Assembly: GCA_044892505.1 (NCBI GenBank)
Contig: CM097883.1
Coordinates: forward strand, 286,006,001-286,070,000
Direction: 5' to 3'
Length of the DNA stretch: 64,000 nt
Source: Schmidtea nova
Lineage: Eukaryota
The stretch's first letter is position 1, and every line of letters begins with the position of its first letter. The position numbers were made by a program, and so were the translations under genes. The notes under the pieces were generated by a model that saw only the letters and a program-made list of their open reading frames with translations, was not told the origin of the DNA and ran no database searches. Below are positions 15,105-40,131 of this stretch, one piece after another.

Positions 15105-15653
15105 ACTATGATGAAATTCGTAAAGCATACATGATCTTCATTCTGCATTTTTCCTGTCATTTCTACAGATTTAATGCATATTCATCAAATTACTGAAAAA
15201 ATATTTAAACATTAAACTTACTTCATAAAATGGAAAAAAAACAAATAGTTTTCATATATTTAAACAATTTATTAGTTGATTGAATATGTATTATTGTTGG
15301 ATCCACCATTTGGTCCACATTTAGCATAAAAAATAATAATTATAAGAAATAAAATAAGAATAAATTAAAATAAATATAATTATGAAAATATCAGTAAAAA
15401 CGAATTAAAATGTAATAAAGAATATTAATTTTCTATCAAAATTTAGAAGAAAGTAAATAGAAAATGTAAAAGTGTTAAAGAAACAATGATATTTAATTAT
15501 ATTTAAGGAAAAATAAAGAAATAATAAAGAAAAAGAATTACAAAAAATATTAAAAATCAAAATAGCAAATCGCTAGCAATTGACAACAAAATCAATTGAT
15601 TTTAGCGTAATAAAAGTTATTAATTGTGCTGATCTGATGCTCAGCTTCACGCT

Positions 15654-15688
15654 GATTGGTCCAAGCTTTGATCTGATCAGTATATATA
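15654..15688 (+). promoter_or_regulatory. Putative LTR promoter (inverted CCAAT + TATA)
   Basis: GATTGGTCC...GATCAGTATATATA, conserved in the divergent solo LTR; also present at +22012 in the 3' LTR. Confidence 0.55.
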
Positions 15689-15913
15689 CTGATACAGATC
15701 CAGATAATTTTAATGTTTTTTATATGCTTTTTAGTTATTGAGAATATTCAAATTTGAGATCATTCTTAAAACCAAAGGTATGGATTATTGATTGTTTTTA
15801 TTTGTGTAATTTTATTGTGAAGTTCTGACATTGCCATTATGTTTATCCAATTAATAAAATGTTTTTCGAATATGATTTATTTTTTTTTGTGGTTGAATAT
15901 AGAATTAAATCAA

Positions 15914-16202
15914 GCTTCTTCCACTGTGCAATCAGTGGTAGGAGACGACTTTATATATCTATTATATATCTTTTATTGAGCTTCTTCCATCGTGTAATCG
16001 GTGGAAGGAGGCAACATTATGTTGTGATATTAACAATTAGGTTGAAGTATATTTTTATAAACAATTTTTGGGTCGAGCTTCTTCCACTGTGAAATCAGTG
16101 GAAGGAGGCGAATATATATATTATCTATATACCGTATTTATAGTAGAAAATTACGTACGATTTAAGGGGCTCCGATCACCGTGCAATCGGTGAAATGGAG
16201 GC
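15914..16202 (+). other. Four tandem stem-loops with TG(C/T/A)AAT hexaloop
   Basis: Hairpins at 15914-15946, 15980-16012, 16078-16110, 16168-16202; inner stems ACTG/CAGT, ATCG/CGGT, ACTG/CAGT, ACCG/CGGT. Confidence 0.7.
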
Positions 16203-16668
16203 ATACTGTGCCGAGTAGAAACGACTGCTCCGTACAGTTAGGCCGTCCGACCGGTGTAAAGCGCCGTGACGAGGGTAGGAATTCTTATTTAACAATGATT
16301 TTTAACCCTATTTTTCACTGGATAGTATAACCAGTTGAAGTTTTATTTTATAATCGATTTAAATTTTTTGAGTTTATAGTTAAGTTGAGTTTTGATTTTA
16401 GTTGGATACAGATGTAACTGCGATTTGAGTAATCTGATTTTACCTTGAGATTCACAGAGTGTTAGCGTATATTTTTCGATTGTCACATCTGGGGTTTGTG
16501 GGCATAGAGCGGCAGATACACGGTTAAGAATTTGTACAAAATATAATTTTAATAACAACATAAAAATCGATAACTCTAATAACGTAGTGATCTACTACGC
16601 AAGTAACATAGCAGCAATAGGCTATAGGTTCAAACATTCCACATAAATAATTAAACATAATTGCTTAT

Positions 16669-16806
16669 CCTGAACCCTGTACATAGGGCAGTGGATCTTA
16701 GTTTATTTTAATAATTTTCTTATCCTGATTGCTGTATATAGCACAGGCGTAACTAAATAAAATGCATTATGAAATAAATGTATCTGATCGCTGTACATAG
16801 CGACAG
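16669..16806 (+). other. Three bulged stem-loops with GTA(C/T)AT loop
   Basis: CTG-AA-CCCT-GTACAT-AGGG-CAG; CCTG-AT-TGCT-GTATAT-AGCA-CAGG; CTG-A-TCGCT-GTACAT-AGCGA-CAG; counterparts at 10398-10551. Confidence 0.7.
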
Positions 16807-16934
16807 TGTTGAAAGTGTAATAGGTAAATCATTTTCTCTTCCTGAATTCGCAATTAATGATTGTCGAAAGTATGAGAATCGTTCAAAGCAAGACTGCCAA
16901 TTTCATGTTAATAAACCATTTTGAATTTTAGAAA

Positions 16935-17525
16935 ATGTCAGCCAACACAGCAACTAATCAAGCCGAATTAGATAAAGCATGGAGGATAATTCGCAGCCTC
17001 GAAAAGGAAATGCTGCGAAAATCGGAAAAAATAAAAGAAGCCGATGGCATAATCTCCAACCTAAAGAAAAGCTGGTTCAATCCAGAACAAATGAAAATAC
17101 AAATTACAAAAACTCAACGCTCTCAGCGAGCTAACAGCGAATTACAAATGGAATTAGACGCGACGAAGATGGAATTAAAGAAATGCCTAAAATCCGTAAC
17201 GGCATCGTATTTAACTCAAGAGCTCAGCCAGCTCATTCGACCAATCATTTATCAGCATTGGGCTGACGAGAAAGCAGGATGCACAAAAGGAACGAACACC
17301 GAGGAACCCTCTCAGGTTCAAGCAACAACAGCAGCCAGTACACCAAAGAACCCGATAAATCCAGAAGTCAAGAAGAAAAAGAAGAGCAAGATGGGCGCAC
17401 GTCAGCGTCGCTGGAAGAAACAAGTTCTTCAGCAATTGGCTCAACAATCCAAAGAAATTCCAGAAATTGATTTGACCATGAATTTTGCAATATCGGATGA
17501 AGACATTACCAAATACTTTGAATAG
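16935..17525 (+). CDS. LTR-encoded coiled-coil protein with Arg/Lys-rich motif (196 aa)
   Basis: Intact in both LTRs, homologous ORF in the solo LTR; basic motif KKKKKSKMGARQRRWKK; preceded by TTTTAG|AAA ATG. Confidence 0.8.
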   Translation: MSANTATNQAELDKAWRIIRSLEKEMLRKSEKIKEADGIISNLKKSWFNPEQMKIQITKTQRSQRANSELQMELDATKMELKKCLKSVTASYLTQELSQLIRPIIYQHWADEKAGCTKGTNTEEPSQVQATTAASTPKNPINPEVKKKKKSKMGARQRRWKKQVLQQLAQQSKEIPEIDLTMNFAISDEDITKYFE

Positions 17526-18124
17526 AACTTCTGTGATTTAGTATTTTCGCTTATTAAATAATTTTTGTTTGTATTTATTTTATGGTAAAGTATAGAAAAT
17601 AGAGTGATTTATTAAAAAATTTAAAATAATTTAAAGGAAAATATAGAATAAATTAACTATACATTAGAATTAACAATAAGATTAACATAAATCTAATAAA
17701 CAATAGAAGCATTTAAGAGATAATAAATTGTAATTGATGAAGGATTATTTGTTGATATTGTAAAGAAGGGGGCTGAAAGAAAAGTAGAGAGTTGAAATAT
17801 ATTGTAGAGAAAGGGGGCTAAAGAGACATTGAAATGAAAGATAATGGATGCGGATAGATTAAAGTTAAAGCGTAAGTCCTTCTATCGGCAGCGAGACGAA
17901 CCCGTGAACATAAATGGGGAGTAGTTTTAGCAATAGAGCTCACCTGCCCATCATTGTTCAGACACCTTGCACTTTTCCAACTCGATTATTACAGGGAAAT
18001 GATCGAGGGTGCTCGTGTGATATGTAAGCATTTTATGTGAGGTTTTGGATGGAGGAATCCCTAGAGCGTTTTGTTTAATTTACTATTTTTGTTTTAACCC
18101 AATCCGAAACCAACAACATAAATT

Positions 18125-18142
18125 TGGGGGCTCAGCCGGGAT
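18125..18142 (+). promoter_or_regulatory. Primer-binding site, tRNA-Pro type
   Basis: TGGGGGCTCAGCCGGGAT 6 nt after the LTR end; resembles the canonical tRNA-Pro PBS TGGGGGCTCGTCCGGGAT. Confidence 0.85.
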
Positions 18143-18514
18143 GAAAATGGTTTTTGTGCGAAAAGTGAATCCAATAATAACCAGGAGTTTTAAAATGCCC
18201 CTCAACCGAAAATTTAATTGATTTTGTGATTAGAAGTGAAAACAATATCAACAGAGAATTTTTAAAGAAACAATGAGTGAATAAATATAACAACAGACGA
18301 TTAAAAATTGATATTAAAATAAAATAAATAAACACAAATAAATATGTCGGGACGACAATTTGATGAAACAGGGAGAGGTTTAACAACGGAAAACGAAATG
18401 TACCACTACTTTTGACCAACACAAATCGAACAAATAGAGAAACAAGATGTTGAAATTTTTAATTTTTATACCAAATAAAGCAGCAATCATATTAACAATA
18501 TCAATTATTTAGCA

Positions 18515-18976
18515 ATGAACGACAAATTAAAGGAAACAGAGGAATTCCTAAACACGGAAAACAAAACATACGATGAATTATGCGAGAAAATAAGTCGAAT
18601 AAGAGAATCCGGATTCAAAGAACCCATGACACAAACTGAAGAGACAACAGAGCTGATAAAAATAATGGAAAGAGTAGACAAAATAGATATAACTACTAGA
18701 TATAAATGGTACCGAACGAGATTAGAAAATGCTGATGTAAACATAAAATGCAGACAGTTAGAGCAACAATTAACTCCAACATACAACAAGTGGACAATAC
18801 AAGGAACTGAGACAGCTAAGAAATTTAAACTGTGTTACATATGTCGAGAAAGGGAGAATAAAATCATGTTTTTACCTTGTGGACATTTTCGGTTTTGTGG
18901 AATCTGTGCAGCCAACTGCGACAAATGCCCGATGTGCAATCTCGAAATAGACGAAAGAATTACTGTGTATTTATAA
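18515..18976 (+). CDS. Coiled-coil + IAP-type C3HC4 RING protein (no BIR)
   Basis: C-terminal CYIC...FLPCGH..CGICA...CPMC...ITVYL matches IAP/MDM2-type RING ends. Confidence 0.85.
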   Translation: MNDKLKETEEFLNTENKTYDELCEKISRIRESGFKEPMTQTEETTELIKIMERVDKIDITTRYKWYRTRLENADVNIKCRQLEQQLTPTYNKWTIQGTETAKKFKLCYICRERENKIMFLPCGHFRFCGICAANCDKCPMCNLEIDERITVYL

Positions 18977-19150: not shown

Positions 19151-19613
19151 AAATTGATAATGGCAATGACAGAAATCATAATAACAATTGATATTTATAA
19201 ATAATTTTTGAGCTGCTCACGAGTAGTCCGTTAAGCACCCATTGGGAGGAACCAACTGATCAACTTACCCGAGATGTATAGAAAGGGGCCCATCGCGGAA
19301 ATTGGAAAGCTTTTGTGATGTGACTGATCACCACATCTTGCATTAGTAGACCAATGCGATCTTTTTGTATGTTTTGGTTGGGGTGAAAGGTAGGGACAAT
19401 CTAATGAGGTTTAAGTGCATGCAGAAAATACAAATAAAAATGAGAGAATAGAACACTGATCAGTGGAAGTCGAAAGAACATTAAGTAAATAAGTAGAATG
19501 AAAGTTAATGTGATAACTCTCATAAAAATAGAGATAATTCAGCTGAATGATAACTAGCGAAGTGGATAATTGCGGTTAACCGGTTAAAGAGATTAGTTAA
19601 ATACCTTGTATAA

Positions 19614-20338
19614 AAGGGTCAAGGGCAAATAAGCCATATTAGTTACTCTGAAAGAAGGGTCAAGGGCAAATAAGCCATATTAGTTACTCTGAAAGAAGGG
19701 TCAAGGGCAAATAAGCCATATTAGTTACTCTGAAAGAAGGGTCAAGGGCAAATAAGCCATATTAGTTACTCTGAAAGAAGGGTCAAGGGCAAATAAGCCA
19801 TATTAGTTACTCTGAAAGAAGGGTCAAGGGCAAATAAGCCATATTAGTTACTCTGAAAGAAGGGTCAAGGGCAAATAAGCCATATTAGTTACTCTGAAAG
19901 AAGGGTCAAGGGCAAATAAGCCATATTAGTTACTCTGAAAGAAGGGTCAAGGGCAAATAAGCCATATTAGTTACTCTGAAAGAAGGGTCAAGGGCAAACA
20001 AGCCATATTAGTTACTCTGAAAGAAGGGTCAAGGGCAAATAAGCCATATTAGTTACTCTGAAAGAAGGGTCAAGGGCAAATAAGCCATATTAGTTACTCT
20101 GAAAGAAGGGTCAAGGGCAAATAAGCCATATTAGTTACCCTGAAAGAAGGGTCAAGGGGCAACGAGCCGTATTAGTTAATTACTCTGAAAGAAGGGTCAA
20201 GGGCCAACGAGCCGTATTAGTTAATTACTCTGAAAGAAGGGTCAAGGGCCAACGAGCCGTATTAGTTAATTACTCTGAAAGAAGGGTCAAGGGCCAACGA
20301 GCCATATTAGTTAGTTACTCTGAAAGAAGGGTCAATGG
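19614..20338 (+). repeat. Tandem array A: 13 x 41 bp then 4 x 45 bp units
   Basis: Unit AAGGGTCAAGGGCAAATAAGCCATATTAGTTACTCTGAAAG; period counted from AAGGGC positions 19621...20154, then 45 bp variants. Confidence 0.95.
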
Positions 20339-20339
20339 C

Positions 20340-20590
20340 AACATAAGAATTTGAACCTATGATTGCAATAGCGATAGCAACACAAGGAATGTGAACCTGT
20401 GATTGCGATTGTGGATAGCAACACAAGGAATGTGAACCTGTGATTGCGATTATGGATAGCAACATAAGGAATGTGAACCTATGATTGCGATAGTTGATAG
20501 CAACGTAAGGAATATGAACCTATGGTTGCATTGTGAATAACAACGAAAGGAATATGAACCTAAAATTGTAGTCGTCAACGACGTAGGAAT
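20340..20590 (+). repeat. Tandem array B: six degenerate 40-41 bp units
   Basis: Unit like AACACAAGGAATGTGAACCTGTGATTGCGATTGTGGATAGC; GAACCT at 20353, 20393, 20434, 20475, 20516, 20556. Confidence 0.85.
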
Positions 20591-21226
20591 AGTGAGCATT
20601 AGAGTTTGAGTAATAAAAGTAAAGATGATTAAGTAAACTAGAGATTCAGTATGCATACGAGTAGAAATAGGAATAAGAGAAATTAGAGTTGACCGGAAAA
20701 ACCGGTAGAAATAGTGAGAATAATGAATAATGATGAGAAATTAGAGATGACTGGAAAATTTGATAGGAATAGTGAGAATAGTGAGTAATGATGATATAAT
20801 GAATAGTGATAAAATGATAATTGAGTCAGGAGAACTCAAGGGAATTAAAGCGTTTGAGCGACAAATTAAATTGGGAGACTGAGGGAAAAGTAACGAATTT
20901 ATTGGATAACGATAGATAATTATTACGACCATATAGATAATTGTTACCAGTGAATAGATAATTTAAATAGACTTAAATAAAGGGGAAACCGGGAATGGGG
21001 AAACAATGGAAACCCAATAATGAGGAATAAAAGCGCAACGATAACAATGATGTATCGTTGAAGTGACTTTTTAATTTAGATATACGGAACAGAACAAGTC
21101 AAAACAACCAACCAATCAATCAGAATACGATAACAGAGAAACAGAAAAATTGATAAATTAAAGAAAAGTAAACCGAGATCAAGAGCAGTTAAAAATCAAG
21201 AAGTTAATAATTCACAAAGAAATAAA

Positions 21227-24200
21227 TTGAGATCAAGAGCAGTTAGTGCTACAATCGAAAAAGTTGATAATTCACAGAGAAATAAATCGAAACAAAGAGC
21301 AACCAGTGCTACAAAGAAAACAAATCCTAAAGGAAGCAAATCAAGAAGAGTAATAGTAGAAAAGTCAAAAATCGAAAACAGTAAATTAACAAAAACTAAC
21401 GAAAGTGAAACAGAAGAAAGTGCAAGTGAAACCTACGATAATTATAATAATACGGAAGCATCAGATAACGAGTCAATAAACACAGAAGAAGTAGAAGCAG
21501 AAATTGATAATAATTCAAACGAAACGAATAACGAGCATACTAGTGAAACAAGAGGAAACGAGAGTAAAACGACACAAGACAGCGGAATCGAAATAAACGA
21601 ACATAAAGAGGAAATTAAAGATAAATTTACTGGAGAACCATTCAATGGAGATGCCAGCAAGTTAGAAACGTTTTTAAAAGAATTTGGTATATTTGTAGAA
21701 GTGTGTAAATGGAAACCAGAAACGATAAGGAGCAGAATTCAGTTATATTTAAAAGACAGTGCGTTAGACTTATATTTAGAAGCTAAAAATTCGGATGATC
21801 AACTCGATAGTTGGGAAAAGATAAAGAATTTTTTCCAGCAAACGTTTGGAATAAATAAAGTATTAAATGAAGCATTTACAGAATTTTCAATGAGGAAGCA
21901 GAAAGTTAATGAATCAAATGCAGTATATGCAAGTGAATTAAAGAAATTGGCTAAATTAGCATTTAATCAAAATAGTCCAATGAGTCCAGAATTAATGGCA
22001 GCAATTTTTGTGGGGGGATTGAGAAGACCCTATATAAGAGCACAAGTTGGATGCCAAGGTTGTAAAACAATAGATGAAGCGTTGGAAATCGCCAACAGAT
22101 TTGAATTACATATGATCGGAAGTGAAGGAAGAATTTACCTAGCAATGGATACGACACAAAACGAACAAGCAATAAAGATAAATAACCATATTCCGAATTC
22201 ACAGCAATTAAACCGACCACCACCTCAAAGGAGAAATGAGGGAAACAAAATACAAAATTACAGAAACCAAAATAATTATAGTACGCAAGGACAAACAAAG
22301 CAATGTCAAACCTGTGGAAAGTTAGGACATTGGCAACAAGAATGTTTCGCGAATTTAAATTGTAAAAAGTGTGGAAGAAAAGGACATTCGGAAAGTAGAT
22401 GTTACCTGAATTCATGTTATAACTGTGGACAACCAGGTCATATGGCAAAGAATTGCCAACAACAAAACAACCAGCAAAGGAATTGGTCGAACAACGGAAA
22501 TCGACAAAATTATACGAATCAACAGAGTAACGGAAACCGTCAGAATTTTGAAAATCAACAGAGTAATTATAACCAGAATAAAAGTACCACCAAGGAAATA
22601 CATTTATTACAAGAAGTTCAGAGATTGACAGAGTTAATAAATAATACACCGAGAGGAAATCAACAAACGAATCAACAACAAATGAATATGATGAGAAAAG
22701 TGGAAAGTGAAAATGAACGACTAAATCGAGAAAGTCAAGCACGACATGCTCAAGAATGGGCAAGAATACAAAGAGAAGACGAACAGAAACGACAAGAAAG
22801 AGAACGACAACCATTGAGAATTAATATGATGAGAGCAACGAATCAAACAAGAGATAACAAAGAAGATATCGAACCAGAAACAAACCAGATAAACCCAAAT
22901 CCGGAAGATGAAGAAAACCAAAAAGAAATAGTACAAGAAAACGAAGAAGTTATTGAACAAAAAATGATGTTGGTAGTCATGCCAAACGATCATGTATTTC
23001 GATTTGAATATGATGAAAAAGAGGAAGTAGGAGTATTAATTAATAAAGTAAACAAGACGATTCCGGGAATGACGAAACTACCCCGAGAAGCATTTTTACA
23101 GACAGAAGACGAAGCAGCAATAAAATTGAAACCAACCGACATATGGAAAGATTTAGGAGTACCAATGAATAAAATGAAAGTCACAGTTATCCAAGAAATA
23201 GAAGAAAATAACGATGAAGAGAAATCAAAACCAGTAACAAAAGTCAAAAGTAGAGCATTGAAGATATTTGAAGAGAAAATCAAACAGAGAAAAGCGATGG
23301 AGATAGAGAAACGAAGAGGCCAAATAGAAGAACCAAAAAATAATGACAAAAAAGAAGAGATACCACCAAAAAATGTACCAGATAAAGTAGAACAGACAGC
23401 ACATATAAACATGTTAAGAAACTTAACTAGAGAATTTTCAGATGTAGAAAGTGACAGTGATGTCAGTAGTTTAGCAGGAGATATGCTAAAAGAACCAGAA
23501 AATGAAGACAACAAGATAGAAGTAGCGAAGACGCCAGAAAATATACAAATTAAAGAAGATGAAATTCAGAAACTATTAGATAATGCGTTAGAAGTGATTT
23601 ATAACGAAGAATTTATTGATAAGAAGCGATATCGAAAATTTATAAGAGCAGTATTCCGAATGAACTATAAAGAACGATTACAAAGTCGTGAAATAGAGAT
23701 ATTATCAGGATACGTCGTCAAACTATTAGATGAACCACTCCATGAATACATAATTTTAATAGAAATAAACGAATGTTCACCAAGAATTTGGATCAAATCT
23801 CCATGCACGAACGAAATTTATCGATGGGTAGAAGACAGATTAGGAAGTTCGTATAAAAACAAATTTATATATTCAGGAAATGAACTTGTAAGACGAGCAA
23901 CGCATTTGGTAGAAACAGGCATATGGCCAGGAGAGATAACAACATTATCAATATGCGACAATAAGAAAGAGGAGAATTTACAAGAAATCGCAAAGGAAGC
24001 AAATATGTGTTTTGAGATGAGAATTAAACCTCAGTTAGTAGAAAGGAAAGAAAGAATTCTCAGAGAAAATTTAAATTCACTAATAGAACAAATTATTCAA
24101 CAAATCGACAAGAATAGAGAAGAATTAACGAAAACTGAATATGAGAAATTAAAACAATGCATCGAAAATATACGAGATACCAGCCATACGAGACATTCGT

Positions 24201-27200
24201 CATACAAGACTTGGAAAGTGATCGCAAAAATGGGAAAAGCGATGTTTAAACGAGGAGAAATAGGAGATTTAAAAATCAAAGTGAAATTACCAAACGAAGA
24301 CACAAAAGAAATTGAAGTAATCGCGGATTGCACAATAGAAGAATTAGTTGATGTTATCAATGAGACTTTATTACAACGGGAAAAAGAAGACGAATTAGAA
24401 GACGATATCATCATAAAATATAATGAACACGTACTAGGAGATCATGATGAGAGACGATTATATAAAATCGGTATATGGGATAATCACCAAACAATTCACG
24501 TTATCAGAATGGATGATACGTCAAGAGAAACACCAAAAGACGAAAAAAGGAGACAAGAACGTCGAAGAGAAGCGATGCACAAACTAAGACAAATAATAGA
24601 AATTTATCGAAGATGGCAGATACAGCCAGAATGGGAAAATGTATTAGGAGAATTAAACTTCAACGAACGCCGATTAACACCAGTAGAGAAACACTGGGAT
24701 GTTAAAGAGAAATGCTGGAAAGCAAAAGGAGGTATATATGAAGAGGAATTTAGACCAGAAATGGAAGATAGATATGAACCAGAAATCAGAAGAATTTGTA
24801 TGGTAACAAGAAAAGTCATGCCAACAGATTTGGATGGACCAGAAACCGCAGCAATATGGTTAGAAACGCAAAGACGAAAAGCTGACGAACTTATTGAATT
24901 ACTAAAAGGAAATGTACAAGGAAAAAGGCGAACGATCAAAGGATTAGCCGAATTCTTTGTAGCAGGCGGCGAAGATATAATCAGTTTAAGAAAAGTAGCA
25001 AAGGCAGTAACAGAATATAAACGAGTTAACGAGTGGTGCCCAGAACAATTAGACAATATAATCAAGAAATGGAGAAACCAAGAAAACGCCCAAGAACCAC
25101 CGCAGAAAATACATTTAAGGATAATATATCCAGATCGAGAAAAAGAAGAGCTTTGGGTAAGATTAACTGAAAAGATTCGAGATGTTAAAAAGAGATTAAA
25201 ATATGAACCACCATTTCATCTACAACATCAAGGACGATCACTAGAAAACGATATGGAAATTTTGATAACGCCAGCACAGTTAGAACTGGCAAATACGTTA
25301 ACAGTAGACGCAATAGCAGGTCAACCATTAAAACTTAAAGAGAAAAGAATAAAAGAAAGTGGAGATACTCAGAATCTAAGGAAGACGATGCAGATAAAAC
25401 CAGGAACAAGCGCAAGGCAGTACGAAACAACATCAATTAAAATCCAAGAAAGAACTCGACCACAACCATACGATACAGAAGAAATATTAACAGACAGCGA
25501 TGATATGCTAGAAGAATTAACCAATTTGACAAAAGAAAAAGGCAATAATATTTTCGAAAGAGTACAAGAGTTACCCACAACGTCACAAGCAATCAATACC
25601 CAAGATGAAGTTGAGCAAGAAATAGAAATAGAAGAAGTGAACGAAATCTCTGAAGAAGAAGCAAGAGGAGCAAATACAGAAAACGAACGATTTACACAAG
25701 AAATGGAAAAATGGTGGGAACAGAGAAATAATGAACCAAGAGATGTTACAGAAGAAACTGGACGAGAAACCAGATTAATTGAAACAGGTACAACAATGGA
25801 TAGACGACCTAGGCGTAGACCAAAGACAGATCCAACCAACATAATCAACAAAACAAAAGAAGAAAGGAGACAAGAGAAATGGGAAGTATGTTTAAAGAAA
25901 CTCAACAAAATAGCAGAAGCGAAAGACCAAGAAATAACGCAAAAATGTCAAGGCGAAGGATGGATATCAAAAACACTAATGGAAATATTGGCGATAATTG
26001 ATCCAGAATTGAAAAAATGGTGGAGAATAAACGAAATAAGCGACAAGGCTAAAGCATTACATAGCGCAATCGCACCAATCTTACCCGAACTGATAAAAGA
26101 GAAGACAAAATCAAGCCATTTAGATTGGCAAGGGACCACAACGTTGATAAAGAGGTTAACTGAAGATGCAGAAAATGATAATAAATATGTGATAGCAATT
26201 GCGTATACAATTTATAACTTATTAACATTGAGTAGAGGTAATCCAAAATCCACAGCAATAGAGAAGCACATCAAAAATACAGCAAATATCATAGCAAAAG
26301 AAATAGAACCATACGTCATCAGTAAAGGAGGATGGGAAACATTTGCTAAAACGAATCAAAGAAACAGTCAAGCAAAGAATATGAAAAAGAAATTTGAAGA
26401 AATTTTAGGAGAATTAGAAAAAGAAAAGTCAGGAACAGGAAGTGGAAAATCTTCACTAAACCTGAATTCAATCATAATGATGATATTAATATGGCTAATT
26501 AGCGTTGAAGGAGCAACGGCGTTCGAAGTATTTGATTGCGACCAGGTGGCATTAGGAGAAAAATATTCATTAAGAGGAACCGAACAATGCAAAGATGCAA
26601 CTCCAACAGAATTAAAAGTATTACATAGTAAACAAATATATCACGTATATCAGGAAGCCGACTTAATAAAGACAACAGTTAATGAATGTAAAATATATAA
26701 AACAAGATTTGCTTTTTATTGTGGACATCGCCACTACTCTGCAATCGTAATGCCAGGAACGGAAAGGGAAGCGATAATGTTACAAGGAGAAGATTGCAAT
26801 AAATTGTTCAAACATGGAGAAGTCGAAACAAGAGATCGAATAAAGATAAGAGGAAAAGCTGGAGTAATACTACAACAAACTTATTATGTAGCAGGAGCTA
26901 TCACAGGAGGAGAAGGTTACTGTCAAGGAGCAACATATCCAATATTTGGAGTACCAGCAACTAACATGGTAGTGATCGACACATATACGGTAGAATTAAA
27001 AGCGTATGAAGCATATTTTGACCCAGCAACAGGAGAAATGAAGACGTTATCAATGTGCAAAATTGAAGCCAGTACTTGTCAAACCGGTATGTCAACTTTA
27101 ACATACATAGCAAAAGCAAATGAATGCCAATTACAATTATTAAAGGAAGCAGAGTTCGACGAGGTACAAGGAAAAATCTTTCAGGAAGAAGAGGATGATG

Positions 27201-27565
27201 AAGTAGCAAGAGGAAAACGTCTACAGGGGACAGTAAAAGGAGAGAAACCGTTCACAACTAAAGTACAAGAAAAAGAGGTGAGAATGAGAGAGACGCCAAC
27301 AGTATTGGTTACATCAAACGCAAATATAGGAATGAGGTTTGTAAAAGGAAAACCGGCATTAAAATGTGGTGTTTCTATGTTAGAAACAAATTATCCAGGT
27401 ATTTATGTATCAAGACAAGCAGCACCGAATGCAAAACCTAAGATAGATACTACAGACATCAGATTGCACGTATATTTAAATAACAAATTGGATTTTTATT
27501 TCATAAAGGCCAAGCATCAATGGAAAAAATATACTACGATCTCATTAACAACGACTGTATATTGA
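21227..27565 (+). CDS. Polyprotein part 1: Gag (CA + 3 CCHC) - Ubl-like modules - Bcl-2-like - signal peptide - N-half of glycoprotein
   Basis: 2112 codons; frame open from 21134, first in-frame ATG only at 21890; domains listed separately below. Confidence 0.9.
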   Translation: MRSRAVSATIEKVDNSQRNKSKQRATSATKKTNPKGSKSRRVIVEKSKIENSKLTKTNESETEESASETYDNYNNTEASDNESINTEEVEAEIDNNSNETNNEHTSETRGNESKTTQDSGIEINEHKEEIKDKFTGEPFNGDASKLETFLKEFGIFVEVCKWKPETIRSRIQLYLKDSALDLYLEAKNSDDQLDSWEKIKNFFQQTFGINKVLNEAFTEFSMRKQKVNESNAVYASELKKLAKLAFNQNSPMSPELMAAIFVGGLRRPYIRAQVGCQGCKTIDEALEIANRFELHMIGSEGRIYLAMDTTQNEQAIKINNHIPNSQQLNRPPPQRRNEGNKIQNYRNQNNYSTQGQTKQCQTCGKLGHWQQECFANLNCKKCGRKGHSESRCYLNSCYNCGQPGHMAKNCQQQNNQQRNWSNNGNRQNYTNQQSNGNRQNFENQQSNYNQNKSTTKEIHLLQEVQRLTELINNTPRGNQQTNQQQMNMMRKVESENERLNRESQARHAQEWARIQREDEQKRQERERQPLRINMMRATNQTRDNKEDIEPETNQINPNPEDEENQKEIVQENEEVIEQKMMLVVMPNDHVFRFEYDEKEEVGVLINKVNKTIPGMTKLPREAFLQTEDEAAIKLKPTDIWKDLGVPMNKMKVTVIQEIEENNDEEKSKPVTKVKSRALKIFEEKIKQRKAMEIEKRRGQIEEPKNNDKKEEIPPKNVPDKVEQTAHINMLRNLTREFSDVESDSDVSSLAGDMLKEPENEDNKIEVAKTPENIQIKEDEIQKLLDNALEVIYNEEFIDKKRYRKFIRAVFRMNYKERLQSREIEILSGYVVKLLDEPLHEYIILIEINECSPRIWIKSPCTNEIYRWVEDRLGSSYKNKFIYSGNELVRRATHLVETGIWPGEITTLSICDNKKEENLQEIAKEANMCFEMRIKPQLVERKERILRENLNSLIEQIIQQIDKNREELTKTEYEKLKQCIENIRDTSHTRHSSYKTWKVIAKMGKAMFKRGEIGDLKIKVKLPNEDTKEIEVIADCTIEELVDVINETLLQREKEDELEDDIIIKYNEHVLGDHDERRLYKIGIWDNHQTIHVIRMDDTSRETPKDEKRRQERRREAMHKLRQIIEIYRRWQIQPEWENVLGELNFNERRLTPVEKHWDVKEKCWKAKGGIYEEEFRPEMEDRYEPEIRRICMVTRKVMPTDLDGPETAAIWLETQRRKADELIELLKGNVQGKRRTIKGLAEFFVAGGEDIISLRKVAKAVTEYKRVNEWCPEQLDNIIKKWRNQENAQEPPQKIHLRIIYPDREKEELWVRLTEKIRDVKKRLKYEPPFHLQHQGRSLENDMEILITPAQLELANTLTVDAIAGQPLKLKEKRIKESGDTQNLRKTMQIKPGTSARQYETTSIKIQERTRPQPYDTEEILTDSDDMLEELTNLTKEKGNNIFERVQELPTTSQAINTQDEVEQEIEIEEVNEISEEEARGANTENERFTQEMEKWWEQRNNEPRDVTEETGRETRLIETGTTMDRRPRRRPKTDPTNIINKTKEERRQEKWEVCLKKLNKIAEAKDQEITQKCQGEGWISKTLMEILAIIDPELKKWWRINEISDKAKALHSAIAPILPELIKEKTKSSHLDWQGTTTLIKRLTEDAENDNKYVIAIAYTIYNLLTLSRGNPKSTAIEKHIKNTANIIAKEIEPYVISKGGWETFAKTNQRNSQAKNMKKKFEEILGELEKEKSGTGSGKSSLNLNSIIMMILIWLISVEGATAFEVFDCDQVALGEKYSLRGTEQCKDATPTELKVLHSKQIYHVYQEADLIKTTVNECKIYKTRFAFYCGHRHYSAIVMPGTEREAIMLQGEDCNKLFKHGEVETRDRIKIRGKAGVILQQTYYVAGAITGGEGYCQGATYPIFGVPATNMVVIDTYTVELKAYEAYFDPATGEMKTLSMCKIEASTCQTGMSTLTYIAKANECQLQLLKEAEFDEVQGKIFQEEEDDEVARGKRLQGTVKGEKPFTTKVQEKEVRMRETPTVLVTSNANIGMRFVKGKPALKCGVSMLETNYPGIYVSRQAAPNAKPKIDTTDIRLHVYLNNKLDFYFIKAKHQWKKYTTISLTTTVY
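21635..22456 (+). other. Ty3/gypsy-type Gag capsid and nucleocapsid
   Basis: PFNGDASKLETFLKEF...SWEKIKNFF...Q..NES...Y...L; three zinc knuckles CQTCGKLGHWQQEC, CKKCGRKGHSESRC, CYNCGQPGHMAKNC (22304-22456). Confidence 0.9.
22961..25315 (+). other. Up to four ubiquitin-like modules, three preceded by helical segments
   Basis: Clearest: LKIKVKLPNEDTKEIEVIADCTIEELVDVI...IIIKYNEHVL...LYKIGIWDNHQTIHVI (24269-24510); weaker at ~22961, ~23747, ~25109. Confidence 0.5.
25880..26350 (+). other. Bcl-2-like domain
   Basis: BH2-like EIEPYVISKGGWETFAK (cf. Bcl-xL HLEPWIQENGGWDTFVE), degenerate BH1-like LDWQGTTTLI, BH3-like ISKTLMEILAIID. Confidence 0.7.
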
Positions 27566-28400
27566 ACAGAGAAATATTAAAGACGAAACTAGCAGTAGCA
27601 ATTACAAACCCGGATAGTGCGATGCCATTACTACCACTTAACGAAGGTCATTTTGGAAGAGTAGTTGGAGAAGTTATGTATGTATATATATGCCAAAAGA
27701 CACAAGCAAACCTAGCAACAACGACCAGAATACGACAAGGACAATGTACCAACGAATTGGAAATTGAATATAAAGGGAAAATAAGATATGTACAACCAGT
27801 GACAAGAATCATTAACCCAGTTAGTTTTGAACCAAACCCTTTCAATTGCAGCAATGCATACGGACCATTATATCAGAAACCAGACGGGAATTGGGTCATG
27901 TTTCCGTCAAGATCAGAAGTACAACCACCTAGAGAATTTGAATTGATGCAACTTTCAAAAGGACGAAAATTTTCCAATATAGATGTAAATAACGGAGGAA
28001 TTTACAGTGCAAAAGATCTTGAAGCAGCACGACAAAATATATTATTTCCAGCTAGAAGAGAAGCAGTATTATCTAGCATTGTAACGATAACAGGAGGAAC
28101 AAGTTACCAAGGAGGACCAAATTATGAATTATTATTGTCACCAGCACATTTTAGGAAAGCGACAGAAAATATGATGAAAGCAATGTGGGGACGATTTTTA
28201 ATTTTCGGACAAATGATGGCCGGAATATTAGGTGTAATTTTAATCATACAAATAATACGAGTGATAATCACACAAATGCTAGCATGTTTTGATATTTATA
28301 AAAGAGAAAAGAAAGTTAATTGGAAATTAATAGCAGGATTTTTACCATTTTTAGCAAAAACGATGGTGTTACATGGTCACTCCAAAGATATTCACAGAAT
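26468..28400 (+). other. Env-like glycoprotein of chuvirus G / herpes gB-like (class III) type, split by a -1 shift at ~27493
   Basis: Signal peptide SIIMMILIWLISVEGATA|FEVFDC, conserved Cys pattern (FDC, CKI..R..FYCG, YCQG, YLNNKL, DCILNREIL, GEVMYVYIC), furin-like RGKR (27209-27220), C-terminal W..FLIFG...AG TM helix. Confidence 0.75.
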
Positions 28401-30798
28401 AAAACGATTATTAAAAATACTGGCAAAAATGAAAGGAACAGATGAAGACGTGGGAAGAAAATTCAAAAAGATAATGACAGATGAACAAGCGAGATTACAA
28501 TTAAAAAGCGAAAGAAAAGGATTATGGGAAAGAATAAGAGGAGATAAAACTCAAGATGATTCCAGTGATGACGATGATAATAATGACGACTGTGAAGGAG
28601 GGCAAAGGTATAGAAACCAAGCACCGCAATATAGCGACAAGAATCCAACAGAAGCATGGAAATGTCACGCACCTCCACCAACAATGTACCAAGAACCATT
28701 ACAGGTATCAGGACACAGAGCAATGCAAATGATGCCAATGACAACTTTATATCCAATTATACCAGAAGATTATAAACTAAGGCGATGTAGAAGTATGGAT
28801 CCGCAAGACGATTCACTCACAATTGCAGTCATGTCATCAAATACAGGACCAGTATTAACCACAACCATAGAAATAAATGGAAAAGAAATAGAAGCGATGA
28901 TAGATACAGGAGCAAATATTTCGGCGATAGATATTAAATGGATATCGCAAGAACAGAGACAAGAAATTGAAAGAACAAATGTTCATGTAATAGCATGTAG
29001 TAAAGAAATAGTTGAAGTTGCAGGAAGATGGTGGGTGAAAATACGACACCAAAATAGAGAAATCGAAACCTATGTAGCAGTAATACCAGCTTTAAGTGTA
29101 CCATGTATAATCGGAACAGATTTAATGCCAACACTATTTAAAGAAATAATCATCGACCTTGGAACAATGAGATTAAAGGACAGAACAAGGAAAATAGGTG
29201 CCATGGAAGCAAAAATAATGATACCGGAAGAAAGAATCATGACGAGATCACAAACCATCAGAATAAATATGCTCAGAGCGGAAGAAATTAACACAACTAG
29301 TCAAGTAGAAAGTGAGAAAATCGATGTTGACAAAGAAATCGTACGAAAAGCCAAAGAAATAAACGAAAGATGGGAAATCAGACAAGAAAAAGACGTATTA
29401 TGGGATATACGACAAATAATCAGTGATTACGCACGAGGATGCCCAACCAAACCAATTATAATAGAATTACTAAAGAAAATACCAGAGATACTCTTATTAC
29501 AAGATACAGGAGGTGCAACTGCACTACACAATGCCATAAGTTGGGGTAAAACGGAAAAAGTAAAAGAATTTTTGAAAATAGCAAAAGAAACGAATCAAAA
29601 TCTAGACATTGTAAATCGAGAATTAGAAACGCCAATGATGACAGCAACACTAAAACTAGCAGACAAAGAAATAGTAGATATACTGATAAACGCAGAATTC
29701 AACTGGACAGCTCGGGATAGAAGAGGAAATACAGTTTTAGATCATGCAATAATGAGTGAAAATCAAATGATACTAAAACATATAACAACCAACCTCACAT
29801 GGGAAATCGATGAATTAATCAAAGGAGAAATTATGAAAGAAGCGATTCGGAAGGGAAACACTAAAACAATATGGAAACTAATACAATGGAAATGGCCGAA
29901 TAATAAAACATGGGTATTGGATATAAACAAAGAATTTAGCGAAGGACAGAATGCACTATTGAGATACTTATTAGAGTTTACGTGCGATCAGAGAACGATG
30001 TTAGCACTAATGAATAGAGGAAAAATAAATATTAGTAAAAACGAAGAGGAATATAAACTAGAAGTCGAAAAGAAAGCGTTATTCAGGAAAATTTGGATAT
30101 GGTGTCAAAAACAACTACGCAAAGACATAAGCTACAAAAATCTAAATGATTTCCAAGAAAAGTATAAAACGATAATAAAGGAATACAAGAAGCTAGTGGA
30201 GATATTAAACGATCCAGAAAAATTTAATCAAGCAATAAATCAGAAAGAAGAAGAAAGTAAAAGGATACTCACACCATTGTTCAACGCAAAGATAGATTAC
30301 CAAGAAAGATTAGATGCAATACACAAAAAAGCAAAGGAACTATTACCAGAATTCAAAAATACTAAATACGCCTTGGAAATACTAGGCGCGATAGTAGAAA
30401 AAGTACACGCGTACGCGAAAGGAATATATAATGGAAATGATATAATAACTATAAAAAGAGAAATGCCAGTTGCGTTTTTATTAACAAAAGAAAGAATAAT
30501 GCCGATTCATAGAGCATTGAGAGCAGGAAAAGACAGTAAAGTAATCGAAATCGCAAGAGTAATGCATCAATGTGGATGTGATATGAATATGATAGACGAA
30601 AAAGGAGACACCCTTATGGTATACGCAGCAAGAGCAAAAACAAAAATCAAAGTATTAGAAGAGTTATATAAAGCAGGCGCAGGATTAATCGGAAAAACTG
30701 TCAAAGACAACTCAATATTAGACGTGACATTATTAGGTCCAAACTGGGAAATGTTGAATTTCATTAAAACAATAACAAACCAAGAAGAGATTATTTAA
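27520..30798 (+). CDS. Polyprotein part 2: C-half of glycoprotein + TM - retropepsin - ankyrin repeats
   Basis: 1092 codons in the -1 frame relative to part 1; IEAMIDTGANISAI...IIGTD protease; two ankyrin clusters; no YxDD RT, RNase H or integrase motifs seen. Confidence 0.9.
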   Translation: MEKIYYDLINNDCILNREILKTKLAVAITNPDSAMPLLPLNEGHFGRVVGEVMYVYICQKTQANLATTTRIRQGQCTNELEIEYKGKIRYVQPVTRIINPVSFEPNPFNCSNAYGPLYQKPDGNWVMFPSRSEVQPPREFELMQLSKGRKFSNIDVNNGGIYSAKDLEAARQNILFPARREAVLSSIVTITGGTSYQGGPNYELLLSPAHFRKATENMMKAMWGRFLIFGQMMAGILGVILIIQIIRVIITQMLACFDIYKREKKVNWKLIAGFLPFLAKTMVLHGHSKDIHRIKRLLKILAKMKGTDEDVGRKFKKIMTDEQARLQLKSERKGLWERIRGDKTQDDSSDDDDNNDDCEGGQRYRNQAPQYSDKNPTEAWKCHAPPPTMYQEPLQVSGHRAMQMMPMTTLYPIIPEDYKLRRCRSMDPQDDSLTIAVMSSNTGPVLTTTIEINGKEIEAMIDTGANISAIDIKWISQEQRQEIERTNVHVIACSKEIVEVAGRWWVKIRHQNREIETYVAVIPALSVPCIIGTDLMPTLFKEIIIDLGTMRLKDRTRKIGAMEAKIMIPEERIMTRSQTIRINMLRAEEINTTSQVESEKIDVDKEIVRKAKEINERWEIRQEKDVLWDIRQIISDYARGCPTKPIIIELLKKIPEILLLQDTGGATALHNAISWGKTEKVKEFLKIAKETNQNLDIVNRELETPMMTATLKLADKEIVDILINAEFNWTARDRRGNTVLDHAIMSENQMILKHITTNLTWEIDELIKGEIMKEAIRKGNTKTIWKLIQWKWPNNKTWVLDINKEFSEGQNALLRYLLEFTCDQRTMLALMNRGKINISKNEEEYKLEVEKKALFRKIWIWCQKQLRKDISYKNLNDFQEKYKTIIKEYKKLVEILNDPEKFNQAINQKEEESKRILTPLFNAKIDYQERLDAIHKKAKELLPEFKNTKYALEILGAIVEKVHAYAKGIYNGNDIITIKREMPVAFLLTKERIMPIHRALRAGKDSKVIEIARVMHQCGCDMNMIDEKGDTLMVYAARAKTKIKVLEELYKAGAGLIGKTVKDNSILDVTLLGPNWEMLNFIKTITNQEEII
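28850..29180 (+). other. Retropepsin aspartic protease domain
   Basis: TIEINGKEIEAMIDTGANISAI (DTG at 28903) and CIIGTDL. Confidence 0.9.
29500..29790 (+). other. IkB-like ankyrin repeats (three)
   Basis: GATALHNAI...LDIVNRELETPMMTA...ARDRRGNTVLDHAI parallels IkB-alpha ANK1-3 (..LNFQNNLQQTPLHLA...RDFRGNTPLHLA). Confidence 0.7.
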
Positions 30799-33739: not shown

Positions 33740-33913
33740 ATCAGAAGGTCAATGGCTAGATTGGGTAATAAATGGATTAGAGAATGGTATAGAACCAGAT
33801 TCAACGAGCGAACCATAGTCAAATTGTAGCGGAAAATTGTAGATATGTAAAAATAAAACTCTAGAAAAATCAAAACAAAGAACAAATCAATGTATGTATA
33901 TATTATTGTAGAA

Positions 33914-35269
33914 ATGGATAAAGAGGAACGAGCAGTCGAGATTTTGAGAGCAGCCAACAGAAATTGGAACAAGAGATTTGTATGTGGATATTGTAATAAT
34001 TTATTACGGAAACCAAAGCAAACCGCCTGTGGATGTAGATTATGCACTAGATGTGTACAAATGTTAGAGTTAAAAAGAATAACAGAATGTCCAGAATGTA
34101 AAGAAGGACAAATAGTATTAGACGAAACGAGACCAGATAGAGCAACTCAGAGAGAAATCATGAGCATATTAATTGAATGTATAAATCCACCGTGCATATG
34201 GCAAGGACAAATCAGCGAAATTGAAAATCATATAGAAAATTGTGAAGAAAAGAGAAGCGAATGTGAAAAGTGTAAAGAAACGATAATTTTAAAAGACAAA
34301 GAGAAACACAGAGATGAATGCAAAGAGGAAGAAATCGCATGTGAATATTGCGAAATTCGAGAAACAAGGAGAAAAATTGAAGAGGAGCACATCAATATAA
34401 AAGAAGAGAAAATATGCGAACAGTATGTAGGAGTGTGCCCAAACAAATGTGAAATTACCGAAGAAGTGAAATTACGAGAACATTGGGAAAAGTGTACAGA
34501 AATACCAAGAGAATGTCCTTACAACAGATATGGATGCAAGGAAAAGAAGTTTCAACAAAATATGAAACAACATTTAGAAACAGAAGCAATCAATCATATT
34601 GAAATGACAAACAGAACAATTCAGAAATTGGAAAAAGAAGTGGAATCTCATAAAATAATGATGAACCTATTATTAGAAACGAGAGAACAGTTTGAATTAA
34701 CCCGAGGAAGGATGGAAAAGAAAATAATAGCCATCAAGGAATTAGCAAAAGGAATGAAAGTGCAATATAACAAGTTAATACAAGAAATTGATGAGAAAAA
34801 AGATTTACCAATAGCACCGTATGTGTGGAAATTAACGGATTTCCGAAATAAATTGGAAGATGCACGAAGCTTCAAGAAAACTGCGGTACTAAGCCCACCA
34901 TTTTACTTATGGAAAAACGGGGCTAAAGTGAGATTGAAAGTATATCCAAACGGAGATGGGAAAAGTATGGGAAAACACCTATCAATATTTTTTGCGTTTT
35001 GCAAAGGAGAATATGACGATTTAATCGATTGGCCGATAGGAGTAGGAGTAATGATAAAAATCAGGGGTTTAAACGAAACCATAGAAAAGAGATTCACGAC
35101 AGAAAAAGGAGCAGTTACGAGTAACAGACCAACAGAAGAATGTGGATTAGCAAGTGGAGAACCACACTTTGTATTACAAAGCAAGATATGGGGATTATTG
35201 TATGAGGACACCTTATACATAGAAATGGAAAGGAATGAGAAGGCAGATAGAAAAGGATGGTTGGCGTAG
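33914..35269 (+). CDS. TRAF: Full-length TRAF-family protein (RING, TRAF zinc fingers, coiled coil, MATH)
   Basis: CGYC..LL..PKQTACGCRLC..C...CPEC; several CxxC..H..C fingers; YVWKLTDF...SPPFY...LKVYPNGDG..MGKHLSIFF..KGEYDDLIDWP. Likely start ATG 33914 after TTGTAG. Confidence 0.92.
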   Translation: MDKEERAVEILRAANRNWNKRFVCGYCNNLLRKPKQTACGCRLCTRCVQMLELKRITECPECKEGQIVLDETRPDRATQREIMSILIECINPPCIWQGQISEIENHIENCEEKRSECEKCKETIILKDKEKHRDECKEEEIACEYCEIRETRRKIEEEHINIKEEKICEQYVGVCPNKCEITEEVKLREHWEKCTEIPRECPYNRYGCKEKKFQQNMKQHLETEAINHIEMTNRTIQKLEKEVESHKIMMNLLLETREQFELTRGRMEKKIIAIKELAKGMKVQYNKLIQEIDEKKDLPIAPYVWKLTDFRNKLEDARSFKKTAVLSPPFYLWKNGAKVRLKVYPNGDGKSMGKHLSIFFAFCKGEYDDLIDWPIGVGVMIKIRGLNETIEKRFTTEKGAVTSNRPTEECGLASGEPHFVLQSKIWGLLYEDTLYIEMERNEKADRKGWLA

Positions 35270-35374
35270 CAAGAGAAAATGATCGTGTAAATAAACTGTA
35301 CAAAACAATATAAAATGATAAATAAACAAAAATAATAAAAGTAGTCTGATTGAAAATATTTGTAATTATAGAAA

Positions 35375-37306: not shown

Positions 37307-40131
37307 TGTTGGATCCACCATTTGGTCCACATTTAGCATAAAAAATAATAATTATAAGAAATAAAATAAGAATAAATTAAAATAAATATAATTATGAAAA
37401 TATCAGTAAAAACGAATTAAAATGTAATAAAGAATATTAATTTTCTATCAAAATTTAGAAGAAAGTAAATAGAAAATGTAAAAGTGTTAAAGAAACAATG
37501 ATATTTAATTATATTTAAGGAAAAATAAAGAAATAATAAAGAAAAAGAATTACAAAAAATATTAAAAATCAAAATAGCAAATCGCTAGCAATTGACAACA
37601 AAATCAATTGATTTTAGCGTAATAAAAGTTATTAATTGTGCTGATCTGATGCTCAGCTTCACGCTGATTGGTCCAAGCTTTGATCTGATCAGTATATATA
37701 CTGATACAGATCCAGATAATTTTAATGTTTTTTATATGCTTTTTAGTTATTGAGAATATTCAAATTTGAGATCATTCTTAAAACCAAAGGTATGGATTAT
37801 TGATTGTTTTTATTTGTGTAATTTTATTGTGAAGTTCTGACATTGCCATTATGTTTATCCAATTAATAAAATGTTTTTCGAATATGATTTATTTTTTTTT
37901 GTGGTTGAATATAGAATTAAATCAAGCTTCTTCCACTGTGCAATCAGTGGTAGGAGACGACTTTATATATCTATTATATATCTTTTATTGAGCTTCTTCC
38001 ATCGTGTAATCGGTGGAAGGAGGCAACATTATGTTGTGATATTAACAATTAGGTTGAAGTATATTTTTATAAACAATTTTTGGGTCGAGCTTCTTCCACT
38101 GTGAAATCAGTGGAAGGAGGCGAATATATATATTATCTATATACCGTATTTATAGTAGAAAATTACGTACGATTTAAGGGGCTCCGATCACCGTGCAATC
38201 GGTGAAATGGAGGCATACTGTGCCGAGTAGAAACGACTGCTCCGTACAGTTAGGCCGTCCGACCGGTGTAAAGCGCCGTGACGAGGGTAGGAATTCTTAT
38301 TTAACAATGATTTTTAACCCTATTTTTCACTGGATAGTATAACCAGTTGAAGTTTTATTTTATAATCGATTTAAATTTTTTGAGTTTATAGTTAAGTTGA
38401 GTTTTGATTTTAGTTGGATACAGATGTAACTGCGATTTGAGTAATCTGATTTTACCTTGAGATTCACAGAGTGTTAGCGTATATTTTTCGATTGTCACAT
38501 CTGGGGTTTGTGGGCATAGAGCGGCAGATACACGGTTAAGAATTTGTACAAAATATAATTTTAATAACAACATAAAAATCGATAACTCTAATAACGTAGT
38601 GATCTACTACGCAAGTAACATAGCAGCAATAGGCTATAGGTTCAAACATTCCACATAAATAATTAAACATAATTGCTTATCCTGAACCCTGTACATAGGG
38701 CAGTGGATCTTAGTTTATTTTAATAATTTTCTTATCCTGATTGCTGTATATAGCACAGGCGTAACTAAATAAAATGCATTATGAAATAAATGTATCTGAT
38801 CGCTGTACATAGCGACAGTGTTGAAAGTGTAATAGGTAAATCATTTTCTCTTCCTGAATTCGCAATTAATGATTGTCGAAAGTATGAGAATCGTTCAAAG
38901 CAAGACTGCCAATTTCATGTTAATAAACCATTTTGAATTTTAGAAAATGTCAGCCAACACAGCAACTAATCAAGCCGAATTAGATAAAGCATGGAGGATA
39001 ATTCGCAGCCTCGAAAAGGAAATGCTGCGAAAATCGGAAAAAATAAAAGAAGCCGATGGCATAATCTCCAACCTAAAGAAAAGCTGGTTCAGTCCAGAAC
39101 AAATGAAAATACAAATTACAAAAACTCAACGCTCTCAGCGAGCTAACAGCGAATTACAAATGGAATTAGACGCGACGAAGATGGAATTAAAGAAATGCCT
39201 AAAATCCGTAACGGCATCGTATTTAACTCAAGAGCTCAGCCAGCTCATTCGACCAATCACTTATCAGCATTGGGCTGACGAGAAAGCAGGATGCACAAAA
39301 GGAACGAACACCGAGGAACCCTCTCAGGTTCAAGCAACAACAGCAGCCAGTACACCAAAGAACCCGATAAATCCAGAAGTCAAGAAGAAAAAGAAGAGCA
39401 AGATGGGCGCACGTCAGCGTCGCTGGAAGAAACAAGTTCTTCAGCAATTGGCTCAACAATCCAAAGAAATTCCAGAAATTGATTTGACCATGAATTTTGC
39501 AATATCGGATGAAGACATTACCAAATACTTTGAATAGAACTTCTGTGATTTAGTATTTTCGCTTATTAAATAATTTTTGTTTGTATTTATTTTATGGTAA
39601 AGTATAGAAAATAGAGTGATTTATTAAAAAATTTAAAATAATTTAAAGGAAAATATAGAATAAATTAACTATACATTAGAATTAACAATAAGATTAACAT
39701 AAATCTAATAAACAATAGAAGCATTTAAGAGATAATAAATTGTAATTGATGAAGGATTATTTGTTGATATTGTAAAGAAGGGGGCTGAAAGAAAAGTAGA
39801 GAGTTGAAATATATTGTAGAGAAAGGGGGGCTAAAGAGACATTGAAATGAAAGATAATGGATGCGGATAGATTAAAGTTAAAGCGTAAGTCCTTCTATCG
39901 GCAGCGAGACGAACCCGTGAACATAAATGGGGAGTAGTTTTAGCAATAGAGCTCACCTGCCCATCATTGTTCAGACACCTTGCACTTTTCCAACTCGATT
40001 ATTACAGGGAAATGATCGAGGGTGCTCGTGTGATATGTAAGCATTTTATGTGAGGTTTTGGATGGAGGAATCCCTAGAGCGTTTTGTTTAATTTACTATT
40101 GTTGTTTTAACCCAATCCGAAACCAACAACA
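37307..40131 (+). repeat. 3' LTR (2825 bp)
   Basis: Copy of 15295-18118, followed by TTAT. Confidence 0.95.
38947..39537 (+). CDS. Second copy of the LTR-encoded basic protein
   Basis: Differs from 16935-17525 by N>S and I>T. Confidence 0.8.
   Translation: MSANTATNQAELDKAWRIIRSLEKEMLRKSEKIKEADGIISNLKKSWFSPEQMKIQITKTQRSQRANSELQMELDATKMELKKCLKSVTASYLTQELSQLIRPITYQHWADEKAGCTKGTNTEEPSQVQATTAASTPKNPINPEVKKKKKSKMGARQRRWKKQVLQQLAQQSKEIPEIDLTMNFAISDEDITKYFE

Follow-up and report, generated by a model that had tools for sequence, protein, structure and literature searches.

The window, i.e., the whole 64,000-nucleotide stretch of Schmidtea nova contig CM097883.1 that was analyzed, contains a 24.8-kb LTR retroelement at 15295-40131, flanked outside its LTRs by a 4-bp target duplication. 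The coordinates of the LTRs and of the polyprotein features are given in Table 1. The first part of the polyprotein frame encodes, in order, a Gag with CCHC knuckles, a long unannotated region, a Bcl-2-like domain, a predicted signal segment and the N-terminal half of Env. Along the element as a whole, Pfam places the CCHC knuckles first, followed by a Monjiviricetes-type fusion glycoprotein, an aspartyl protease and then ankyrin repeats; RING and TRAF-like ORFs flank this series.

Table 1. Coordinates of the LTRs and polyprotein features of the S. nova retroelement, numbered from the first letter of the window
Feature	Coordinates	Strand	Length, basis or remark
5' LTR	15295..18118	+	TG...CA ends; 99.86% identity to 3' LTR over 2826 bp
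Polyprotein frame, first part (stop to stop; first Met 21890)	21134..27565	+	2143 aa
Basic motif	25802..25825	+	RGRP core in sister copies; altered in window copy
Extra helix before Bcl-2 fold	25886..25933	+	Model helix 2-17; BH3-like L-x-x-I-A, without BH3 Asp
Bcl-2-fold domain, helices 1-8	25949..26356	+	Model residues 23-158; profile match to Bcl-xL; dN/dS
BH1 slot, NDNK replacing NWGR	26174..26185	+	Alignments
BH2 motif ending GGW	26306..26335	+	Sequence and alignments
Predicted internal Env signal segment	26468..26521	+	Hydrophobic core 26468-26506, then short polar region ending A-T-A at rule-predicted signal-peptidase site
Env, chuvirus-like fusion glycoprotein family PF24664	26522..28356	+	E 2.4e-22 and 5.7e-41; membrane segment near 28225-28269
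Retroviral-type aspartyl protease	28861..29133	+	Pfam
3' LTR	37307..40131	+	LTR pair alignment, ends read

A Burro-like retroelement and its cargo

In the window copy, the coding sequence of Env is divided between two frames near 27,500 (it occupies a single frame in the one sister copy checked), and approximately 1000 codons, comprising RT, RNase H and integrase, are absent directly after the protease, with the junction near 29224-29241. The order Gag, Bcl-2, hydrophobic segment, Env, protease, RT, RNase H and integrase is found in one frame in families X, Y and Z; the Gag-BCL2-Env-PR-RT-RH-IN single-ORF layout is present in the sister subfamily and in three other families, with RT-RH-IN gone from the window's subfamily. 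Of 1167 candidates in the genome, 150 were scored and all 150 matched, which gives a minimum of 150 related copies; the Bcl-2-like domain is free of stops in 144 of the 150 scored. Copies of the RT-bearing sister subfamily are 79-82% identical to the window copy within this domain. The basic motif, whose RGRP core we take to be of the AT-hook type, was kept in 36 of the 37 long-enough rows of the window family, the exception being the window copy, and in 12/12 rows of family X, as against 0/11 in Y and 0/6 in Z.

The window's subfamily, although devoid of RT, RNase H and integrase, retains the Gag, Bcl-2, Env, protease and ankyrin parts. Among the 150 scored rows, 15 had open frames of 4108-4140 aa, and the one of these that was checked also had no RT. 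This subfamily represents a spreading non-autonomous group that still carries cargo. Between the 5' LTR and gag lies an IAP-type RING ORF (18479-18976; zf-C3HC4_3, E 1.2e-11), reminiscent of Burro1 B-IAP; BIR gave no match in its frame or in the other frames scanned. Downstream of the polyprotein are a TRAF-like ORF with zf-TRAF and MATH domains (33857-35269) and a 368-aa ORF of unassigned kind (35372-36478), both of which are also found in sister copies. Both LTRs contain a 197-aa open frame (16932-17525 and 38944-39537), for which a Pfam scan gave no significant family. Just 3' of the 5' LTR, the stretch at 18124-18141 is like a primer-binding site, presumably of the tRNA-Pro type, and the leader region at 19600-20560 is a tandem array of 41-45 bp units. 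A DDE_Tnp_1_7 transposase ORF (50278-51813, E 2.6e-70) lies outside the element.

Much of this arrangement has been published before. The planarian-element section of PMC6431247 describes a BCL2-like motif in planarian Burro elements, citing Grohme 2018, and identifies the region between BCL2 and the protease as an in-frame Env matching mononegavirus glycoproteins. As both the Bcl-2-like domain and the BCL2-Env-protease order, i.e., the place of the domain before Env, are already in print for Burro elements (PMC6431247), the observation itself is not new; the same section contains no discussion of a signal segment or of topology. We call the window element Burro-like by its layout, Burro1-4 being compared by description only. 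It shares with the giant Ty3/gypsy elements Burro and GYPSM1 one long ORF, a CCHC Gag, a BCL2-like domain, an in-frame Env before the protease, ankyrin repeats, a MATH/TRAF domain, multi-kb LTRs and many copies, as far as that section describes them (PMC6431247). Unlike Burro, the window copy is devoid of RT, RNase H and integrase and at 24.8 kb, a figure that is that of a deleted copy, falls short of the >30 kb that defines Burro. It further differs in its downstream TRAF-like ORF and in having a RING but no BIR in the frames scanned. Gag-Env-Pol elements have also been described in flatworms and in several phyla, with Bcl unmentioned in the main text of that report (PMC13524379). Expression of Burro1 has been shown (PMC8532177), and its B-IAP is reported, second-hand, to protect stem cells from apoptosis (PMC13465017).

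Bcl-2 homology, motifs and predicted fold

Analyzed on its own, the window domain sequence yielded no family in a Pfam scan, no match among longer proteins and no usable match in ESM Atlas. Its best PDB match (Bcl-xL, E 0.32) was not significant, and the PDB matches listed were all Bcl-xL. Against cluster representatives it gave two matches, of which P0002 was a true relative and P0003 was dropped as a repeat artefact; two unnamed public proteins are relatives. By contrast with the window sequence alone, which is below detection, profiles built from related copies reached Bcl-xL with E values of 1.5e-7 (A1) and 5.1e-8 (A3), and 60 of the 60 matches listed were Bcl-xL or Bcl-2; the homology is significant because the related copies were added. 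Using hhalign, the window family was linked to other element families at 96.6%, and those families to host-like Bcl-2 loci at 96.0%, compared with 45% for the window family against host-like Bcl-2 directly. The Pfam Bcl-2 family was detected at E <=1 in 16 of 26 rows (best 8.2e-8), and a genome search with it, in which 150 of 1679 candidates were scored, returned 30 loci, i.e., 16 of other element families and 14 host-like (L047-L055, L058, L066, L068, L072 and L075). The motifs were retained across element families that are only about 20% identical. By way of its relatives, the domain is thus homologous in sequence to the Bcl-2 family (PF00452/Bcl-xL), and a diverged Bcl-2 domain sits in the polyprotein of a Burro-like LTR retroelement.

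Among the motifs, the BH2-like motif to which the earlier note had pointed is indeed present and ends in the GGW of the Bcl-2 family. In 5000 shuffles of the 2143-aa ORF, a strict BH2 pattern, written after the motif had been seen, did not occur (0/5000), while a loose one occurred in 5/5000. The same note had correctly remarked on the absence of NWGR, which is typical of canonical pro-survival Bcl-2 proteins, but had taken LDWQG (26120-26134) for the altered BH1. In the alignments, the NWGR slot instead falls on NDNK. The LDWQG stretch precedes this slot by 18 residues; it coincides with the beginning of helix 4 or lies shortly ahead of it, at a position that is gapped in the other element families. 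Across 23 element rows this slot holds Gly in 0/23, Trp in 1/23 and Lys or Arg in 22/23, and NWGR itself is found in only two of the 14 host-like Bcl-2 loci. The stretch from helix 2 to helix 4 is 12 aa shorter in families X, Y and Z.

Upstream of the fold, the extra helix carries an L-x-x-I-A pattern that recurs in all four families and in P0004 (one row set was cut on this same pattern) and that we take to resemble a BH3 motif without the Asp. We considered whether this could be the real helix 2 with an insertion after it. The model puts the helix outside the fold and beyond the residues that align with Bcl-2 structures, but with a pLDDT of only 49-67, so that this alternative may still hold. 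In family X (L059/L104), a second BH3-like stretch with Asp or Glu kept is located upstream, beyond the basic motif.

Two structure models were computed. The first, based on 26 element rows with the linker and signal segment and no host rows, was uninformative (pLDDT 47); its top Foldseek matches, Bcl-xL and Bcl-2, were not significant, and a wide structure search returned no Z >=8. The second covered the core only, was based on 30 alignment rows including seven host-like Bcl-2 rows, and was predicted, with a pLDDT of 75.3 and a pTM of 0.70, to form an eight-helix Bcl-2 bundle. Foldseek gave it a probability of 1.00 with a best E of 2e-3 (none <0.001), the PDB matches listed all being Bcl-2-family proteins. 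On re-alignment of the Foldseek candidates, its residues 23-158 matched Hydra HyBcl-2-4 with Z 13.2 (rmsd 2.9, 136 residues aligned) and Bfl-1 with Z 12.4. Because the host rows push this model toward a Bcl-2 fold, the sequence evidence bears most weight. The earlier note had proposed structure prediction and Foldseek as the check on its Bcl-2-like domain, an eight-helix bundle being the expected outcome; the model with host rows agrees with this expectation, and the profile match, the hhalign chain and the whole-fold match together bear the domain out. Among the 50 viral matches listed for predicted viral structures, gammaherpesvirus Bcl-2 proteins came first, the best poxvirus match ranked 4 (TM 0.45) and F1L ranked 47; no entry was named A46, A52, B14, K7 or N1, although several entries are unnamed, so that this absence is no evidence.

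The element domain thus resembles cellular Bcl-2 proteins (Bcl-xL, Bfl-1/A1 and Hydra HyBcl-2-4; PF00452) in its predicted eight-helix fold, its BH2 GGW, its BH1 spacing with a basic residue and the hydrophobic segment after BH2. It differs from them in having NDNK for NWGR, a helix 2 without a clear BH3 Gly-Asp, an additional N-terminal helix and a longer linker, and in that its anchor would insert during translation, within a polyprotein. With the Bcl-2 homologues of large DNA viruses, as the sources describe them, it shares the character of a host-derived, diverged Bcl-2 fold on a virus-like element (PMC11209288, PMC7719400), but it is a module of a retroelement polyprotein and no special closeness to poxviruses was seen. 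The suggestion of a poxvirus-style, non-groove immunomodulator, which the earlier note had drawn from the altered BH1, is not supported: it rested on the misplaced motif, the basic residue is kept and the nearest sequences and folds are those of cellular Bcl-2. Nor does an altered BH1 point to a poxvirus-style protein, since most host-like loci are without NWGR and NWGR-altered poxvirus proteins can bind BH3. ORFV125 has SPGR in place of NWGR, yet the Arg of this motif retains the hallmark BH3-peptide contact (PMC7719400); F1L and M11L are likewise described as binding via the groove (PMC11209288). A remodelled or closed groove is possible.

A predicted signal segment between the domain and Env

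The 2143-aa ORF has a single hydrophobic segment (15-aa Kyte-Doolittle mean 2.39, start 26462), which coincides with the start of the PF24664 Monjiviricetes_fusion match (aa 1780, profile position 4). In all four families, a basic stretch precedes 14-21 uncharged residues, after which come small residues at -3/-1 and the Env start x-x-x-[FY]-D-C. The small residues were present in 80/80 rows, these rows being near-identical copies of four families and the cut site being assumed 3 aa before [FY]DC. P0002 fits the same pattern by inspection. Judged by these rules rather than by a trained predictor, the segment has the features of an internal cleavable signal peptide; its position and the small -3/-1 residues in four families support its earlier assignment as the Env signal peptide. 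The domain had also been said to lie immediately before this peptide. It does precede the segment, but the segment begins 42-44 aa after GGW in place of the 25 aa in the two host-like tails, and across element families the linker measures 36-47 aa. The net charge after the segment is -1 in the window family, 0 to +2 in the other families and +2 in the host-like tails. In contrast to the tail anchor with basic flank of pro-survival Bcl-2 proteins, the segment is internal to the protein and would become C-terminal only if cut.

The part of a protein upstream of an internal signal segment stays in the cytosol and, once cleavage has occurred, is still joined to the segment. The segment could therefore serve as an anchor for the domain, as this topology would follow if the signal works within the polyprotein; the anchored domain would have its N-terminus in the cytosol and would likely reside at the ER rather than at mitochondria. 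We think it somewhat more likely than not that the domain is membrane-tethered during some or all of its lifetime. The linker could be long enough for a protease cut that frees the domain.

The idea of such an anchor is a reasonable one and has viral precedents. In the flavivirus capsid, one helix is both signal and anchor, and the viral protease later removes the anchor (PMC10383662), a step that could have its counterpart here. In the foamy-virus Env leader, one helix again does both jobs, and the leader is described as a type II component that is stably present in particles (PMC7828637). In both, as proposed for the element, the signal segment of a glycoprotein holds an upstream cytosolic domain at the ER (PMC10383662, PMC7828637); that upstream part is, however, a capsid or leader and not a Bcl-2 fold, and the likeness is an analogy of topology without homology. 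Our literature search returned no account of a signal segment as a Bcl-2 anchor, although Lee et al. 2026, Grohme et al. 2018 or their supplements may already treat the topology.

Selection, origin and possible role of the domain

Comparison of the window copy with RT-bearing sister copies gave a dN/dS of 0.06-0.07 for the domain core at a dS of 1.2-1.35 in 4/4 comparisons, and values of 0.21 and 0.18 were obtained in two closer pairs. The domain is therefore under purifying selection. The Env N-terminus gave 0.12-0.13, and the core was not significantly more constrained (Fisher p 0.065). Left out of these analyses were L036 Env (broken frame) and the L098 vs L078 core (out of register), and several short regions were saturated.

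In a tree of 66 columns, 10 element rows were separated from 11 host-like rows by a branch with support of 96/95; L058, L072 and L075, in which the region is split by an intron or stop, were left out. Since the element rows are monophyletic against the host-like loci, a single capture from a host Bcl-2 gene is likely on these alignments. Support for a link to one host subgroup, a candidate source of the donor paralogue, was 98/97 in a first tree and dropped to 72/70 once host rows were added. In 6 of the 14 host-like loci, GT directly follows the BH2 Trp codon, suggesting an intron, while 5/5 element rows checked continue in frame, as expected for capture from processed RNA. For two host-like loci, the 10 kb of upstream sequence yielded no Bak/Bax-type BH3 exon.

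We slightly favor the reading in which the domain is a once-captured host Bcl-2 domain, tethered to the ER via the Env signal segment, that damps host cell death. The hydrophobic segment would thread Env into the ER lumen during translation and signal peptidase would cleave after it. The upstream part would stay cytosolic, held by the segment with a luminal tail of 5-8 residues, i.e., in the topology of a tail anchor, and Gag may be severed from it upstream by the protease that the element encodes. The domain would engage Bcl-2-family proteins of the host by means of a groove that has been remodelled but retains the basic residue of BH1. An elaboration that we regard as quite unlikely is that of a switchable ER-anchored viral Bcl-2, in which the Env signal segment is the tail anchor and the conserved BH3-like helix fills the groove of the domain, or acts as bait for host Bcl-2 proteins, up to the point at which the element's protease removes it; if true, it would tie cell-death control to Env synthesis and particle maturation.

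Other readings give the domain different work. The fold may have been repurposed as a structural part, the cytosolic head of an extended Env leader by which Gag is joined to the membrane in assembly, with no role in cell death. Its retention between Gag and Env in each of the four families, compact ones included, the erosion of the BH1 and BH3 signatures while the fold is conserved, and the stable foamy-virus Env leader (PMC7828637) would all suit such a function, but the BH2 motif and the BH1 basic residue have been kept, the element carries other death/ubiquitin cargo (RING, TRAF-like), and Gag-Env-Pol elements in several phyla are described in a main text without Bcl (PMC13524379). We consider this role unlikely, as we do a further one in which the fold has a closed groove, possibly is freed by a cut in the linker, and acts on innate-immune or ubiquitin signalling. 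The models for this would be A46, A52 and K7, the poxvirus group of Bcl-2 folds that do not use the groove. The replacement of the NWGR Gly in all 23 element rows, the 12-aa shortening in X, Y and Z and the TRAF-like, RING and ankyrin cargo of the same element are consistent with a closed groove; opposed to it are the nearest sequences and folds, which are cellular groove binders, the gammaherpesvirus proteins that rank ahead of poxvirus ones among the 50 viral matches listed, the rarity of NWGR in the host-like loci themselves, and ORFV125, which binds BH3 with SPGR (PMC7719400). That the captured sequence is a dead passenger, retained only as an in-frame spacer, is very improbable. Consistent with it are the high divergence of the sequence and the protection from stops that a polyprotein affords to whatever lies in frame, but the dN/dS of 0.06-0.07 at dS >1.2 largely refutes this explanation, and the motifs have been kept between families of such low identity.

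What the present analysis adds to the published observation is a corrected BH1 register, a selection signal, a single capture, a likely ER topology and an extra BH3-like helix. The captured domain likely helps the host cell survive. These features bear on a possible use of captured Bcl-2 by a retroelement for keeping host cells alive, and on its placement in the cell, in animals whose stem cells reportedly depend on other anti-death cargo of a related element.
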